DNA from: a virus
Taxonomy: Duplodnaviria; Caudoviricetes
IMG/VR virus record: IMGVR_UViG_3300020276_000001
Coordinates: 1 to 64,000 of that record
DNA length: 64,000 nt
Direction: 5' to 3' (one strand)
Below, piece by piece: positions 30,076 to 40,366 of the stretch (the first letter of the stretch is position 1; every line of letters begins with the position of its first letter). A program made the position numbers and the translations under genes. The notes under the pieces were generated by a model. The model saw only the letters and a list, made by a program, of their open reading frames with translations, did not search any database and was not told the origin of the DNA.

Positions 30076-31110
30076 ATGGCAAACCAATCTAAATTTGAAG
30101 CGATGCTTGAAAAGTTAATCGCAGAAGACAAAGCGGGAGCTGAAGAGCTATTTCACGAAATAGTTGTTGAGAAATCTCGTTCAATATACGAAGACTTACT
30201 TGAGACTGATACAGCAGAAGTTGAAGTGGATGAAGCCGCTAAAGACGATGCTAAAGACGAAAAAGTAGAAGAAAAAGAAGAAGCTAAAGACGAAGACAAA
30301 GTTGAAGAAGCATCAAAAGAAGACGATGCAGAAGACAAAGTTGAAGAAAAAGCTGACGCTGACAAAGACGAAGACGTTAAAGAAGCTACTGACGAAGACG
30401 AAAAAACTGACGAAGCTACTGAAGAAAAAGACGTTGAAGAAAACTTTGCAGACCAAATTACACCAGAAGGTGATGATGAAATGGGTGGCGATGCCGCTGA
30501 TGACATGATTGCTGACATCGAAGATGATGGCGAAGGTGAAGAAGATAAAGGCGACGACGAAGACTTAGAAGACAGAGTTGTTGACCTAGAAGATGCTCTT
30601 GATGATCTTAAAGCTGAATTTGACGGAATGATGTCCGACAAAGACGGTGACGAAGACAAAGGCGAAGATGACATGGAAATGGACATGGACGCTGGAGACG
30701 ACGAAGGTGATGAAGAGAAGGAAGACGAAGCAGTAGTAATTGCTCCGGAATCCGACCTTGAGCAACCAGTTGCGTTTGAAAATGCTGAAAAACCAGTACA
30801 ATCAAGTGCAGAGCTAATGAGAGAGTACGTTTCAAAAGTAGCACCTAAAATGGGTGATGCTGGAACAGACGGTACTAAATCACCAGTAGCTGGTAAAAAC
30901 GACATGGGCGGAGAAGCTAGTAACATCGCACAAGGTGGCGAAGAAACTGGTGGAAAAGCACAGGCTCCAAAAGAAGATTCAGCTGGTAACGTAAACGTTC
31001 CAGGTGGAAAAGCAAGTAAGAGTATGTCGAAAGACTCAAAAGGCCACGGCGCAGAGAAAAAAGGCGCAGGCGAAAGTGGAGCAGATAGTAAATCTACTAT
31101 CGGTTCCTAA
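30076..31110 (+). CDS. Highly acidic prohead core/scaffold-associated protein
   Basis: D/E-rich 344-aa protein between portal and protease; late promoter and RBS. Confidence 0.7.
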   Translation: MANQSKFEAMLEKLIAEDKAGAEELFHEIVVEKSRSIYEDLLETDTAEVEVDEAAKDDAKDEKVEEKEEAKDEDKVEEASKEDDAEDKVEEKADADKDEDVKEATDEDEKTDEATEEKDVEENFADQITPEGDDEMGGDAADDMIADIEDDGEGEEDKGDDEDLEDRVVDLEDALDDLKAEFDGMMSDKDGDEDKGEDDMEMDMDAGDDEGDEEKEDEAVVIAPESDLEQPVAFENAEKPVQSSAELMREYVSKVAPKMGDAGTDGTKSPVAGKNDMGGEASNIAQGGEETGGKAQAPKEDSAGNVNVPGGKASKSMSKDSKGHGAEKKGAGESGADSKSTIGS

Positions 31111-31133: not shown

Positions 31134-31766
31134 GTGATAAACTTAAGAGAGAATTTGACATTCGACCAAGCTAAAATGGTCATTGAGACTACTGAAAACG
31201 ACAAGGGTGGAAAGGACCTTTTTTTAAAGGGAATTTGTATCCAAGGCGGAGTAAAAAACGCTAACCAGCGAGTTTACCCTGTTACCGAGATAGGTAGAGC
31301 TGTCAACACTCTTAACGATCAGATTACGGGAGGATATTCAGTTCTCGGCGAAGTTGATCATCCAGAAGGACTTAACATAAACTTAGACCGAGTTTCGCAC
31401 ATGATTACAGAAATGTGGATGGACGGACCAAACGGTTACGGGAAACTTAAAGTATTACCTACGCCAATGGGACAACTAGTTAAAACAATGCTGGAAAGCG
31501 GAGTTAAACTAGGTGTTTCATCGCGTGGTAGCGGAAACGTCATGGAAGATGGTTCCGGACAAGTAAGCGATTATGAGATTATAACAGTCGATGTAGTTGC
31601 TCAACCCAGTGCTCCAGGTGCCTACCCGACACCAATATACGAGCATTTATTAAATGCCCGTGGGGGGTACAAGGCACTAGAATTAGCACGAGAAGTTCGA
31701 GGCGACAACAAGGCACAAAAGTATTTGAAGGAATCTTTGGTTAATATAATCAAAGGCCTCCAGTAA
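31134..31766 (+). CDS. gp21: Prohead protease
   Basis: NANQRVYP, LGEVDHP, LGVSSRGSG and DVVAQPSAPGAY motifs. Confidence 0.95.
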   Translation: MINLRENLTFDQAKMVIETTENDKGGKDLFLKGICIQGGVKNANQRVYPVTEIGRAVNTLNDQITGGYSVLGEVDHPEGLNINLDRVSHMITEMWMDGPNGYGKLKVLPTPMGQLVKTMLESGVKLGVSSRGSGNVMEDGSGQVSDYEIITVDVVAQPSAPGAYPTPIYEHLLNARGGYKALELAREVRGDNKAQKYLKESLVNIIKGLQ

Positions 31767-31779
31767 TAAGGAGAAAAAT

Positions 31780-32883
31780 ATGTTGGAAGCACTGAAATCA
31801 CTTTTTGAAAACAACGCAATTTCAGAAGAAATCAGAGCAGACATCCAAGAAGCATGGGACAAGCAAGTAAGTGAAAACAAACTGGCTGTCACTGCGGAAC
31901 TTCGTGAAGAGTTCGCTAGTAAATACGAACACGATAAAGCTACTATGGTTGAAGCAATTGATACAATGGTAACTGAAAAACTTCAAGAAGAAATTTCCGA
32001 ATTTGCTGAAGATAGAAAACAATTAGCAGAAGCTAGAGCCAAGTATGCTGTAGCTATGCGTGAAAACGCAGGTTTGTTAAAAGGTTTTGTATTTGAACAG
32101 CTTAAGAAGGAAGTGGGTGAGTTACATGAAGACCAAAAAACTATGTCAAGTAAATTTGGCAAGTTAGAGGACTTTGTTGTAGAAGCTCTTGCTAAAGAAA
32201 TTGCAGAGTTCCACGAAGACAAGAAAGATTTAGCTGAAACTAAAGTTAAACTAGTTAGAGAAGCTAAAACACATTTAGCAAAAGTACGTAAGTCTTTTGT
32301 TGAGAAAAGTGCAAAAATTGTATCTGAAGGAGTTAGTAAAAAACTTTCAAGTGAAATTACTCAACTTAAAGAAGATATTGATTCAGCACGTAAAAATGAT
32401 TTTGGTCGCAAAATTTTCGAAACATTTGCAGGCGAGTATGCAAATAGCTACTTAAACGAAAAGTCCGAAACAGCTAAACTATTAAAAGTAGTTAATGTTA
32501 AAGACAAAGCAGTTGCAGAAGCTAAAGCAGAAGTCGAAGAAGTTAAGAAAATCGTCGAGAGTAAAGACGCAGAGATTGGAAAAATTTCTGATGCGGCTAA
32601 ACGTAAAGAAGTAATGCACGAATTAACTGGACCTTTGAGCAAGGACCAGCGTGAGATTATGGTAGACTTACTGGAAAATATACAGACAAGCAAACTGCAA
32701 AGTGCGTTTGACAAGTATATTCCGGCGGTAATAGACGGTAAAACTCCAGCGAAGAAGAAGGCTACTCTTACAGAGTCCGAGGCAAAAGAAATCACAGGCA
32801 ATAAAGAATCTAACGTTAGTAGAGTAAGTCAAGAAGAGAATAATAATATTATTCATATTCAAAAACTTGCTGGATTGAAATAA
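31780..32883 (+). CDS. gp22: Prohead core scaffolding protein
   Basis: Coiled-coil protein between protease and major capsid gene. Confidence 0.8.
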   Translation: MLEALKSLFENNAISEEIRADIQEAWDKQVSENKLAVTAELREEFASKYEHDKATMVEAIDTMVTEKLQEEISEFAEDRKQLAEARAKYAVAMRENAGLLKGFVFEQLKKEVGELHEDQKTMSSKFGKLEDFVVEALAKEIAEFHEDKKDLAETKVKLVREAKTHLAKVRKSFVEKSAKIVSEGVSKKLSSEITQLKEDIDSARKNDFGRKIFETFAGEYANSYLNEKSETAKLLKVVNVKDKAVAEAKAEVEEVKKIVESKDAEIGKISDAAKRKEVMHELTGPLSKDQREIMVDLLENIQTSKLQSAFDKYIPAVIDGKTPAKKKATLTESEAKEITGNKESNVSRVSQEENNNIIHIQKLAGLK

Positions 32884-32893
32884 GGAGAAAACA

Positions 32894-34060
32894 ATGTCAG
32901 AACTACTAGAAAGTCGCTGGCAGGATACCAAAACTGCACTTTTAGAAGGCCTAAATGGTAATAAGAAAGCTGTAATGGCAAGTACTCTTGAAAACACACG
33001 CAAGTGGTTGAATGAGACTGCTACAGCTGGTTCTACAAGCGCCGGTAATGTTGCAACTCTAAACAGAGTTATCCTACCAGTAATCAGACGTGTCATGCCG
33101 ACTGTAATAGCCAACGAATTAGTTGGTGTACAGCCTATGACAGGTCCAGTGGGTCAAATCCACACATTAAGAGTACGTTACGCTGATTCGTCAGATGGTA
33201 ACGAAGTTGGTGAAGAAGCATTATCACCATTTAAGATCGCGGCGGCATACTCAGGTAACGCCACTGATGCAACACCTAAAGGATCTGCTACAGCGGCTCT
33301 AGAAGGTCAAGCTGGAAAGAGAATGTCTATCCAGATCTTAAAGCAAACTGTCGAAGCAAAAACTAGAAAGCTATCAGCTAGATGGACTTTTGAAGCGGCA
33401 CAAGATGCTCAAGCACAGCAAGGCATCGATATTGAAGCAGAAATTATGGCGGCATTAGCCCAAGAAATTACTGCTGAGATCGATCAAGAAGTATTAGCTT
33501 CTTTGAGAGCTTTAGCTGGTACGCAAAACCAACAAGCATACGACCAGAACGCTGTAAGCGGTACTGCAACATTCGTAGGTGATGAACACGCGGCTTTGGC
33601 TGTGATGATCAACCGTGTTGCTAACAATATCGCACAGAGAACTAGACGTGGTGCTGGTAACTATGCTGTGGTTTCACCACACGCATTAACTATCCTACAA
33701 AGTGCAACAACTTCAGCGTTCGCAAGAACAACTGAAGGTGCATTTGAGGCTCCTACAAATACTAAAATGGTTGGAACATTGAATTCAGCTATGAAAGTAT
33801 ATGTAGATTCATATGCCACTGATGCAACTGCAATTCTTGTAGGTTACAAAGGTTCAAGTGAATCAGACGCACCTGCGTTCTACTGCCCTTACATTCCTTT
33901 AATGTCAAGTGGCGTAGTACTAGATCCGTCTAGCTTTGAGCCAGTAGTTAGCTTTATGACAAGATACGGTTATGTTGAGTTAAACAACACAGCATCATCT
34001 CTTGGTAATGCGGCAGACTACTTAGGTACAGTTACTATTGCGAACGTAACATTTAGCTAA
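32894..34060 (+). CDS. gp23: Major capsid protein
   Basis: GVQPMTGPVG, VEAKTRKLSARWT, EITAEIDQE, AFYCPYIPL and FMTRYG motifs. Confidence 0.97.
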   Translation: MSELLESRWQDTKTALLEGLNGNKKAVMASTLENTRKWLNETATAGSTSAGNVATLNRVILPVIRRVMPTVIANELVGVQPMTGPVGQIHTLRVRYADSSDGNEVGEEALSPFKIAAAYSGNATDATPKGSATAALEGQAGKRMSIQILKQTVEAKTRKLSARWTFEAAQDAQAQQGIDIEAEIMAALAQEITAEIDQEVLASLRALAGTQNQQAYDQNAVSGTATFVGDEHAALAVMINRVANNIAQRTRRGAGNYAVVSPHALTILQSATTSAFARTTEGAFEAPTNTKMVGTLNSAMKVYVDSYATDATAILVGYKGSSESDAPAFYCPYIPLMSSGVVLDPSSFEPVVSFMTRYGYVELNNTASSLGNAADYLGTVTIANVTFS

Positions 34061-34095
34061 TCCATAGGGTTAGTTACTTAATGTAACAAAGTATT

Positions 34096-34125
34096 AGAAA
34101 GGCCCTTCGGGGCCTTTCTTTTTTT
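34096..34125 (+). terminator. Rho-independent terminator of the capsid operon
   Basis: AGAAAGGCCC-TTCG-GGGCCTTTCT followed by a T tract (cUUCGg loop). Confidence 0.95.
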
Positions 34126-34169
34126 ATGGATATTCTTTCTATTTTGGTAAACCTTTTTGCATTTTCTGG

Positions 34170-34198
34170 TTGCTTTTTGTAACTAGAGGTGCTATATT
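34170..34198 (+). promoter_or_regulatory. Sigma70-like promoter upstream of a structured RNA
   Basis: TTGCTT-17 bp-TATATT, placing +1 near 34205. Confidence 0.65.
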
Positions 34199-34204
34199 AG
34201 TAAC

Positions 34205-34421
34205 ATAAGCATTAGTAGAGTAATTAACTACTAATTATAGTGCAAGGAAGAGGCTCCTACCAAAAGAGTCGAACTTGACGGTCCAGGGGTGGTACCCAGG
34301 GTTTGTAGTAGAAATACGCAGGCTCACATCGCACTAACCCGCGGGGATCGGTTGTACGGTTTAGAAATGGTATTTCGGTCCGTGCTTGTAGGTGTACCCA
34401 AGTCCTACCTATTTTGCTTAT
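34205..34421 (+). ncRNA. Candidate stand-alone structured ncRNA (about 217 nt)
   Basis: Terminal stem ATAAGCA/TGCTTAT starts at the predicted +1; multiple internal helices and a GAAA tetraloop. Confidence 0.7.
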
Positions 34422-34461
34422 ACTTTCTTTCCCCATTCCCAAAACTTTGATAAATACTTGT

Positions 34462-34530
34462 GTCTATAGAGCGAGTCGCCATACAGCGGCGGACTTATGC
34501 GGAATACCATCCGCGTAGACCTAGAACGTC
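34462..34530 (+). promoter_or_regulatory. Structured 5' leader after late promoter GATAAATA (34449)
   Basis: Hairpins GAGTCGCC/GGCGGACTT and TATGCGGA/TCCGCGTA just before the GGAG RBS. Confidence 0.5.
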
Positions 34531-34544
34531 AAAGGAGAAACAAA

Positions 34545-35162
34545 ATGGGAAGACCAATTAATAAAAAACACATTGGTGATGGAGCAGGTAAAATCCAAGT
34601 AACTGCGGTTAAATTCGCGGCAGGTGGAGAAATTACTACTGAGTCACACATTGTGAATCAAAGATCAGCAAATAAATTTACTGTTACAGACGGAAGTAAA
34701 ACTGAAGTATGTACACTTGTTAACAAGTCAATCGGTGGTTTAGGTGCTAGTGAATTTTGTATCAACGTTACAGACAGTGATGGTGTTACAAAACAAGTAA
34801 CTAAAATGTTCAACAGAAAAATGCAACTTGAAGGAGCAACTAGACATAAATGGGCTAGAAACTCTGCAGGTGCATCTACGGCAGTTGAGAAAGTTATTTC
34901 AGGTGCTACAGCGGCAGATCCAGTTGTTATTACAGCAACAGGACACGGCTTCAGCAACGGAGATAAAGTATCTATCCGTGGCGTAGTTGGAATGGTTGAG
35001 CTTAACACTGAAACTGCATATACAGTGGCAAACAAAGCAACTAACACATTTGAATTATCAGGTGTTGACGGTAGTGGCTTTACTGCATACGGTAGTGCTG
35101 GAGTGGCAACTAAAGCGGCGGCTGAAGCTGGCGGCATTGTTGTTGACGCACAGGCATCGTAA
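34545..35162 (+). CDS. Virion structural/decoration protein with an FCCH-like beta domain
   Basis: Start reassigned to ATG 34545 (AAGGAG RBS). ISGATAADPVVITATGHGFSNGDKVSIRGVVGMVELN is the phage FCCH-like motif. Confidence 0.7.
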   Translation: MGRPINKKHIGDGAGKIQVTAVKFAAGGEITTESHIVNQRSANKFTVTDGSKTEVCTLVNKSIGGLGASEFCINVTDSDGVTKQVTKMFNRKMQLEGATRHKWARNSAGASTAVEKVISGATAADPVVITATGHGFSNGDKVSIRGVVGMVELNTETAYTVANKATNTFELSGVDGSGFTAYGSAGVATKAAAEAGGIVVDAQAS

Positions 35163-38748: not shown

Positions 38749-38774
38749 TATCCAAAACGTATAAATACATATAA

Positions 38775-38878
38775 CATAAAGCAAGACCATCTGAGGGAGA
38801 GAAGCCCGAAGACGTTTTATGGGACATACTGTGGTTAACCGGCAATGTAATTAGGTTAGAGGGACAAGATCCCCGTAT
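38775..38878 (+). promoter_or_regulatory. Structured 5' leader between late promoter TATAAATA (38760) and the GTG start
   Basis: Stem CATAAAGC/GTTTTATG, then a three-way junction ending 2 nt before the GGAG RBS. Confidence 0.5.
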
Positions 38879-38890
38879 TAGGAGAAACAA

Positions 38891-40366
38891 GTGGCTGTAG
38901 GTCGTATATCGGGTCCGCTTTTAAAGGCAAATCTTCTGCGTAATGGCGTAGATTTAGCATTTGAAACCGACCTTCTTTATCTGGATGTTAATAACAGTAG
39001 AATAGGTGTTAAGACTGCATCTCCTCAATACGATTTAGACGTCAACGGAACAACAAGATCAACAGATTTAATTACTACAGGAACATCATATATAGGTGAT
39101 GTTAGAGTAAGTGGTAATACAATTACTACAGTTTCAAATACATTAAACTTAACAACTGTAGGTTCAGACAAAGTTACAGCATTAAAGACTCTTGATATTG
39201 ACGATTTAAGATTTGACACAAACGTAATTTCAAGCACAGTTTCAAACTCAGACATTGAAATACTTCCACATGGTTCGGGTAAGGTTGACGTACAAGGAAA
39301 TTTAGCAGTTACAGGTAATATAGATATTACAGGAAATTTAGTTGCTGATGGTGACATTACAATTTCAGGTAACGTACAGATAGGTGACGAAGCTACTGAT
39401 ACAATTAGTATCACAGCAGGTATTACATCAGATCTAAAACCAGATGCAACTGCAACATATAATTTAGGTACTCCAAGTAAAAAATGGAATAGCATACACT
39501 CATCAGCGGCCTACATAGACGACATAGTAATTGATAATAACATAATTCAAAATACAGTTTCAAATGCAGACTTAGAATTAAGAACAAACGGGTCAGGTTA
39601 CATTATTGTAGATGACTTCTTAATGAAGAATAACAGATTAGAAACAGCTACTTCAGACATGGTATTCAATCCAGGTAGTGGTGTTGTTAATGTAAATGCT
39701 ACGGGCTCGGTTAGAATACCTGCAGGTACTACAGCTCAAAGACCAAGTGTACCAGCAACAGGAATGATACGTTACAACACCACTACTTCAAAGTTTGAAG
39801 GTTATGATGGTAACTGGATTGTACTAACAGGTGTGTATGATTTAGATGCTGACACTTATATTACAGCAGAATTAACACCTGGTGCAAATGATAACACTAT
39901 TAGATTTTACTCTAATGGTAACTTAATTGCAAATATTACAGAAACAGAATTTAATGTTGCTAAGATTAACGTAGATAGCATACAAATTGACGGCAACACT
40001 ATTAGTACAACTACTGCAAATACAGACCTTAATTTAACACCAAACGGCACAGGCGGTGTACAAATAGATAATTTTAATATCAGCGGAAGTACTATAAATA
40101 ACACTAGTAGCGGTGCTACAAGTGTGTTAGATCCAGGTACTGGATTCTTTAAAATTGAAGGTACAGATGCATTTATAGTTCCAGCTGGTACAGGTGCCCA
40201 ACGTCACGCAAGTCCTATTTTAGGAATGACACGTTGGAACACAACAGATGGAAGACTAGAAATATATGATGGAACAGTATGGGACACAGTTGCAGGTAGT
40301 TCTGGAGCAGTTTCTCAAACAGATGCACAAAACATCGCATTAGAATTAGTATTAAGTTTAGGATAA
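38891..40366 (+). CDS. Fibre-like virion protein, paralogue B (GTG start)
   Basis: MAVGRISGPLLKANL; colinear with the 37279 ORF. Confidence 0.75.
   Translation: MAVGRISGPLLKANLLRNGVDLAFETDLLYLDVNNSRIGVKTASPQYDLDVNGTTRSTDLITTGTSYIGDVRVSGNTITTVSNTLNLTTVGSDKVTALKTLDIDDLRFDTNVISSTVSNSDIEILPHGSGKVDVQGNLAVTGNIDITGNLVADGDITISGNVQIGDEATDTISITAGITSDLKPDATATYNLGTPSKKWNSIHSSAAYIDDIVIDNNIIQNTVSNADLELRTNGSGYIIVDDFLMKNNRLETATSDMVFNPGSGVVNVNATGSVRIPAGTTAQRPSVPATGMIRYNTTTSKFEGYDGNWIVLTGVYDLDADTYITAELTPGANDNTIRFYSNGNLIANITETEFNVAKINVDSIQIDGNTISTTTANTDLNLTPNGTGGVQIDNFNISGSTINNTSSGATSVLDPGTGFFKIEGTDAFIVPAGTGAQRHASPILGMTRWNTTDGRLEIYDGTVWDTVAGSSGAVSQTDAQNIALELVLSLG

Follow-up and report, generated by a model that had tools for sequence, protein, structure and literature searches.

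A manA-family RNA with its own predicted promoter behind the capsid gene of an uncultured marine phage

An uncultured marine phage encodes an RNA of about 217 nt, flanked by the capsid gene and by a gene that has a late-type promoter box; this RNA is a slightly divergent, sub-threshold member of the known manA family (Rfam RF01745) and no new class. The DNA studied, called the window in the following, comprises 64,000 nt of a 103,992-base IMG/VR virus record, which is estimated to represent about 30% of a genome. Judged from homologous sequences and from analogy with family members of solved structure, the whole is best explained, in our view probably correctly, by a self-promoted manA-family RNA gene whose product would be folded, free-acting and most likely self-assembling. 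An earlier reading made from the letters of the window (the sequence-only reading) had proposed that a discrete, structured non-coding RNA is expressed among late genes from a sigma70-type promoter of its own. Covariation bears out the RNA and conservation the promoter, and the location agrees as well. All features are collected in Table 1.

Table 1. Features around the manA-family RNA, in window coordinates.
Feature	Position	Strand	Details
Prohead protease	31134-31766		Pfam Peptidase_S77
Scaffold-like gene	31780-32883
Major capsid protein gp23	32894-34060		Pfam Gp23, 4e-100
gp23 intrinsic terminator	34096-34126	+	stem-loop 34096-34119 with 10-bp stem and loop TTCG, then T run
Sigma70-type promoter	34170-34198	+	-35 TTGCTT 34170-34175; 17-nt spacer; TG 34190-34191; -10 TATATT 34193-34198; predicted +1 ~34205
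manA-family RNA, ~217 nt	34205-34421	+	Rfam RF01745, covariation, loop contacts
P0	34205-11/34415-21		ATAAGCA/TGCTTAT
P1	34212-18/34228-34		L1 palindrome UAAUUA 34221-26
Pseudoknot P2	34237-40/34409-12		ATAG/CTAT
P3	34252-56/34266-70
P4	34279-84/34345-50		CGGTCC/GGATCG
P5	34286-88/34295-97		GGG/CCC; L5 34289-94
P6	34299-310/34315-25		L6 GAAA
P7	34329-32/34341-44		TCGC/GCGG; L7 34333-40
P8	34354-59/34380-85		inner part 34364-66/34374-76; L8 34367-73
P9	34388-92/34404-08		L9 34393-403
C-rich, G-poor spacer	34422-34449	+	10 C and 1 G in 28 nt; site of an intrinsic terminator in 28 homologues
ATAAATAC box	34450-34457	+	T4-type late-promoter-like element (NATAAATA) ahead of the next gene's leader; putative function
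freshwater-2 RNA motif (RF02980)	34475-34547	+	52.5 bits, above the gathering cut-off of 49.9
Downstream gene, 205 aa, MGRPINK...	34545-35162	+	E1_FCCH-like domain; weak PHROG 'major tail protein' match; start codon set by freshwater-2 alignment

Family assignment and fold

At its gathering thresholds, Rfam yielded the freshwater-2 motif alone, and manA appeared under E-value thresholds. This match spans positions 34213-34418 and all 192 positions of the model, with E-values of 7e-12 in a 701-nt search and 6.6e-10 in the whole window. Its score of 50.3 bits is just under the cut-off of 55.2, so that routine annotation overlooks the manA RNA of the window. The sequence-only reading had implied that the RNA belongs to no known family, which the full-length match contradicts; identity with a known family, named in that reading as grounds for its own refutation, is what was found. 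When the region was compared by blastn with 50,697 phage records, Pelagibacter phage Mosig was the sole match (74% identity over 191 nt), and its copy, at L001:2979-3186, passes the Rfam cut-off for manA with 64 bits. Ten other homologues gave full-length manA matches throughout, at 40-58 bits, of which three pass (loci L005, L029 and L016). The subfamily of the window, at 40-64 bits, straddles the Rfam cut-off.

Homologues were collected by scanning viral contigs with one 14-mer of the core, followed by nhmmer, which resulted in 78 matching loci with E-values down to 1e-53. The alignment used here, A1, consists of 59 distinct full-length copies and the window (60 in total); it samples one subfamily, and its 14-mer is invariant by construction. 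Onto A1 we projected the Rfam structure together with the terminal stem of the sequence-only reading. In the resulting fold, 91.4% of the cells are paired and double changes occur in 48 of the 63 pairs, which answers the check for covariation among homologues that had been suggested earlier. The covariation score reaches 0.51, compared to 0.17 for shuffled and approximately 0.1 for slid partners, and every variable helix of the manA consensus structure (P1, the pseudoknot and P3-P9) covaries. The minimum free energy of the window sequence is unexceptional, with a z-score of -1.69 and 13 of 200 shuffles folding equally well. The evidence for the structure is comparative and not energetic, and energy alone is weak. 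As shown by covariation across these sequences, the predicted transcript of the window would fold into the manA core (P1-P9 and the pseudoknot P2), closed by the extra stem P0.

P0 is absent from the Rfam model of manA. Re-examined independently of the end alignment, it has at least 5 bp in 57 of the 60 copies and a mean length of 6.6 bp, versus 4.9 bp with shuffled partners. Six compensatory forms were found (ATAAGCA/TGCTTAT, ATATGC/GCATAT, TAATGC/GCATTA, TATAGCA/TGCTATA, TAAGTA/TACTTA and ATAATAG/CTATTAT), and the terminal stem proposed for the window is thus confirmed. Among the internal helices of that proposal, ATTAGTAG/CTACTAAT, GGCTC/GAGTC, GGGTTTGT..GAAA..GCAGGCTC, GTACGG/CCGTGC and GTAGG/CCTAC are present and backed by compensatory changes. 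The pairings TAGTGC/GCACTA, AACC/GGTT and last loop/GGTAC (34291), being 61-71% paired with hardly any compensatory change, had to be given up. Pairing of the last loop with ACTTG is possible in 95% of A1 but nearly invariant, so that covariation speaks neither for nor against it. P4, P5, P7 and the pseudoknot ATAG/CTAT were absent from the earlier fold. Its remarks on composition and coding hold: the G+C content of the RNA is 45.6% versus 37.4% for the window, the reading frame of the window is open in only 15 of the 60 homologues, and no reading frame is conserved.

The likeness to RF01745 extends to the 5' hairpin, the pseudoknot, P3, the P4-closed junction with P5, P6 (GNRA loop) and P7, and then P8 and P9, to the conserved core sequence blocks and to the T4-type marine phages as carriers. 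In contrast to the family model, the copy of the window lies 5 bits below the cut-off, carries a 5-nt deletion in the P3a region, different L8 and L9 sequences and the additional P0, and resides in a phage whose capsid is closest to jumbo phages and not to a cyanophage. Furthermore, Rfam classes manA as cis-regulatory, but a promoter of its own stands before this copy and a terminator of their own behind many relatives. ROOL, GOLLD and similar RNAs gave no Rfam match in the window. A weak match to the ARRPOF RNA (RF02933; 34129-34309, E 0.014) involves core blocks of the form GCAAGG...GGUGGUA that are common with manA, and on sequence the two families may be distantly related.

Promoter, transcripts and neighbouring genes

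The sigma70-like promoter that had been noted with its predicted +1 at the closing stem is present (TTGCTT-17-TATATT), and an element at the same distance was found in all 60 copies, ending 5-8 nt 5' of the first base of P0 when the flanks are anchored on P0. In the homologues it is near-consensus: the family promoter reads TTGAC(A/T), 16-17 nt, TG-n-TATA(A/T)T, with at least 10 of the 12 consensus positions in 53 of 60 copies and the TG of an extended -10 in 50. The weak point of the window is its -35, where three of six positions match, and because of this a generic consensus scan did not call the promoter. Host RNA polymerase would start at this sigma70-type promoter with extended -10, and the transcript would begin at about 34205. 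Judged by promoter type, expression may be early.

RNA data were available as assembled metatranscriptome contigs from four runs of four marine studies, which do not reveal start, end, strand or level. The contigs cover gp23 to about 34050-34098 and then 34225-34422, with contig ends at 34225 and 34379; positions 34094-34201 are free of contigs, and none spans 34148-34201. One contig (run X8) bridges 34398-34956. This pattern is a weak hint that fits a start after the promoter and some read-through in the lineage of the window. In run X4, one contig links position 34417 back to 34283 through a single additional C, so that the 3' two thirds of the RNA form a circular-looking unitig at a depth of 83; an artefact of assembly or of template switching on an abundant structured RNA could explain it.

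Upstream of the RNA, the window holds a T4-type head module. The terminator claimed to precede the RNA was found behind the ORF that matches Pfam Gp23. The capsid protein shares 67-71% identity with its counterparts in the jumbo phages Sinorhizobium phage Phosso, Vibrio phage 2.275.O and Serratia phage BF, and the public runs with this region are marine metatranscriptomes and metagenomes; the carrier is an uncultured marine phage with a T4-type core and a capsid protein closest to jumbo phages. The three isolates are without such an RNA directly after gp23, because just about 100-150 nt are present there 3' of the gene. Neither tRNA nor tmRNA was found near the RNA, and a search of the whole 104-kb record (the window and the remaining 40 kb, together about 30% of the genome) gave no further manA copy.

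Six copies of ATAAATAC occur in the window, all on the + strand (29062, 30028, 34450, 38761, 53105 and 62393), a number that by itself is not above chance. The box recurs 3' of the RNA in homologues, and on sequence grounds the copies of the window are probably T4-type late promoters. One copy lies 48 nt 5' of an ORF at 30076, and another opens a leader at 38760-38893. The freshwater-2 motif, here in a marine phage and preceded by a ATAAATAC box, ends 3' with the Shine-Dalgarno sequence and ATG of the next gene, whose product is probably a virion protein. The motif also stands 5' of the same gene family (MGRPINK...) in loci L005, L066 and L028. It has the appearance of a late mRNA's 5' leader; a literature search on freshwater-2 returned no relevant paper.

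Two further RNA elements were observed in related contigs. A glutamine riboswitch aptamer (RF01739, 50-60 bits) is located approximately 150-300 nt 5' of the manA-type RNA in three of them (L028:3026-3075, L005:2812-2861 and L066:5879-5926), and in L028 and L005 a small ORF of 65-77 aa separates the two, where the window has gp23. Moreover, L025:4516-4781 is a permuted (two-piece) tmRNA gene of the alphaproteobacterial type, about 2.3 kb from the manA-type RNA of that contig.

An intrinsic terminator starts 4-9 nt 3' of P0 in 28 of the 60 copies. In 13 loci gp23 stands ahead of such a terminator-type unit, and elsewhere one of two other small genes does so; on the 3' side comes a cytidylyltransferase-like gene, the gene of a cold-shock protein or the MGRPINK... 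gene. These following genes carry separate sigma70-like or ATAAATA boxes; in L029 and L057 the ORF that comes next is encoded on the other strand. Because promoter and terminator belong to the unit itself, while the neighbours are either separately promoted or convergent, the family shows the behaviour of a free-standing RNA gene rather than that of a leader. The position of the terminator directly 3' of P0 in about half of the relatives likewise suggests, from architecture, that the RNA is its own molecule and no switch for the next gene. The copies of the window, L028 and L059 are without a terminator. For the spacer of the window, a Rho-dependent stop or read-through is possible, and some transcripts probably continue through the freshwater-2 leader into the following virion gene, which has a late-type box itself. 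Another 27 loci, Mosig among them, form a second group that also lacks the terminator, and in most of these a gp32-like gene starts 58-98 nt downstream.

According to its typing in Rfam, the RNA would instead be a cis-acting leader or riboswitch, which senses a ligand or protein and controls the downstream gene, i.e. the freshwater-2-led virion gene in the window and gp32 in relatives. We consider this unlikely, even though complex, highly conserved junctions are present and the authors of the 2010 survey rated manA a riboswitch candidate occurring in 5' UTRs (Weinberg et al. 2010, PMC2864571). In the window, the bridging contig connects the RNA and the next gene with no terminator in between, and the close gp32-like gene in most of the 27 loci points in the same direction; because there is no terminator, the window and gp32 lineages could accommodate a leader role. 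However, the 28 immediate terminators have stem sequences that vary freely while the 3' part of the RNA is constant, so that no conserved anti-terminator pairing is apparent by inspection. An expression platform was not found, neither as a terminator in the window nor, by inspection, as a conserved alternative pairing in the relatives. The following genes, with promoters of their own or in convergent orientation, are functionally unrelated to each other. The 3' strand of P0 shares positions with a perfect TATAAATA box in the gp32 group, and late transcripts of the gp32-like gene would consequently lack the RNA, which would head solely transcripts from the upstream sigma70 promoter. The literature search gave no paper that assigns a function to manA and no ligand, and the family members with solved structures assemble into closed multimers in the absence of a ligand (Ren et al. 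2026, 10.64898/2026.07.01.735769).

In L025, L016, L060 and about 20 other loci, the 58-98 nt that join the RNA to the gp32-like gene are G-poor and rich in A, U and C. This stretch is reminiscent of the T4 gene 32 mRNA, in which an unstructured operator follows a 5' pseudoknot.

Loop contacts and self-assembly

Self-assembly of manA RNAs was described by cryo-EM in a preprint, whose helix names (P1, P2, P3a/b and P4-P9) fit the numbering used here (Ren et al. 2026). At high RNA and Mg2+ concentrations in vitro, family members other than that of the window form closed, RNA-only homo-oligomers from pentamers, namely a 60-subunit T=1 icosahedral cage, decamers and octamers. The cage-former A0F1 is held together by the contacts L5-L7', L8-L9' and L1-L1', and the Photobacterium variants by L6-P6', L5-L7' and L3-L8'. 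The main text of the preprint is without covariation, in-vivo or promoter analysis (Ren et al. 2026).

In A1, L7 is complementary to the final four bases of L5, and the two vary jointly (GGUA/UACC, UGU/ACA, UGC/GCA, UAU/AUA and AGU/ACU). On average 2.82 of the three core pairs are formed, compared to 2.27 with shuffled partners, and none of 2000 shuffles reaches the observed value. The central pair of L8/L9 is U-A in 48 copies and A-U in eight, and by eye the step from CUGU/ACAG in A0F1 to GGUA/UACC in the window is a full swap that keeps the complementarity. The covariation of L5/L7 and of L8/L9 fits pairing within a molecule as well as between molecules; by analogy with A0F1, the L8/L9 contact of the window probably lies between copies. 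The earlier assumption that the last loop is part of a pseudoknot was right in so far as the loop has a partner, namely L8, whereas the proposed partner GGTAC is wrong by covariation counts. The contact L3-L8 (UACCA/UGGUA) is 88% paired, but changes in L8 are compensated in L9 and not in L3, and it was kept as an alternative.

A palindrome of at least 6 nt is found in L1 of 52 of the 60 copies, and its forms UAAUUA, UAGCUA and UUAUAA differ by double changes. Because L1 is A+U-rich, palindromes are common there by chance, and shuffled loops contain one in 18.8 copies on average and in 30 at most. Since a palindromic hairpin loop cannot pair within itself, L1 is the strongest sign in the sequences of a contact between molecules, and its frequency argues for self-assembly. 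By homology with the manA RNAs studied by cryo-EM, the RNA of the window would most likely self-assemble into closed, pentamer-built homo-oligomers, possibly a cage, through the loop-loop contacts L1-L1' (UAAUUA, 34221-26), L5-L7' (GGU/ACC, 34291-93/34337-39) and L8-L9' (GGUA/UACC, 34369-72/34395-98).

Compared with the 60-subunit cage of manA_A0F1 (Ren et al. 2026), the window has the same set of helices and loops, the L6 GAAA, the L5/L7 register GGU/ACC and a complementary L8/L9 pair. It differs in the sequence of that pair and in L1, which is a 9-nt loop with a 6-nt palindrome in the window versus a 4-nt loop in A0F1. With regard to the Photobacterium variants, which form decamers via L3-L8' and L6-P6', the 3' half of the window RNA is similar, and its L3 (UACCA) could pair with L8 (UGGUA). 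Of the functions guessed in the sequence-only reading, "scaffold" comes closest to these multimers, which were seen with other family members.

The multimers also bear on a further alternative, in which the RNA modifies the polymerase close to the promoter and carries it past the following terminator by processive antitermination, like HK022 put or the Bacillus EAR element. The epsC motif, which came from the same 2010 survey as manA, later proved to be a processive antitermination element, and in 28 of 60 loci the RNA indeed lies directly 3' of a strong promoter and directly 5' of a terminator. Nevertheless, such a role is very improbable: similarity to any Rfam antiterminator family is missing, in L029 and L057 unit and next gene converge, a palindromic L1 and covarying loop-loop contacts would be unexpected, and the multimers seen by cryo-EM offer the simpler reading. 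That chance helices in an intergenic spacer were mistaken for a functional RNA would agree with the unexceptional folding energy, but is excluded for practical purposes by the compensatory changes across 60 distinct homologues, the E-value to a curated family and the conserved promoter.

Meaning for the manA family

The putatively self-assembling manA-type RNA has a parallel in ROOL, GOLLD and similar RNAs. These are free-standing, highly structured non-coding RNAs, often phage-borne, that self-assemble into closed shells; we know of no role for them. The manA-type RNA resembles them as a free-standing structured phage RNA and in the predicted closed shells, and differs in being unrelated in sequence and fold, ROOL and GOLLD being far longer (about 500-800 nt).

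With respect to annotation, at least 78 loci in viral contigs belong to a manA subfamily that lies unlabelled around the Rfam cut-off, at 40-64 bits. Since 2010, manA had been an orphan "riboswitch candidate", until RNA-only cages were reported in vitro in July 2026. The locus of the window and its relatives add to this the closing stem P0, a universal own promoter, a terminator in about half of the loci and natural covariation at the multimer interfaces. A promoter in front of every copy and a terminator behind about half of them give the manA-type RNA the look of a gene and not of a leader. The loops that hold the multimers appear to be under selection for complementarity, including the L1 palindrome, which would be able to act only between molecules.

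From this we tentatively propose, as a possibility that we rate below even chances, that manA RNAs are free-standing phage genes, presumably early because of their host-type promoters, which form RNA-only, pentamer-based shells in the infected cell and whose interfaces L1, L5/L7 and L8/L9 are selected for this purpose. RNA cages in infected cells are testable in a cultured system, because Pelagibacter phage Mosig has a copy above the cut-off. If the proposal is true, the label "cis-regulatory" in Rfam would be wrong for at least this manA subfamily, and the cages obtained in vitro would be the selected, functional form, maybe a compartment, sponge or scaffold of the phage.
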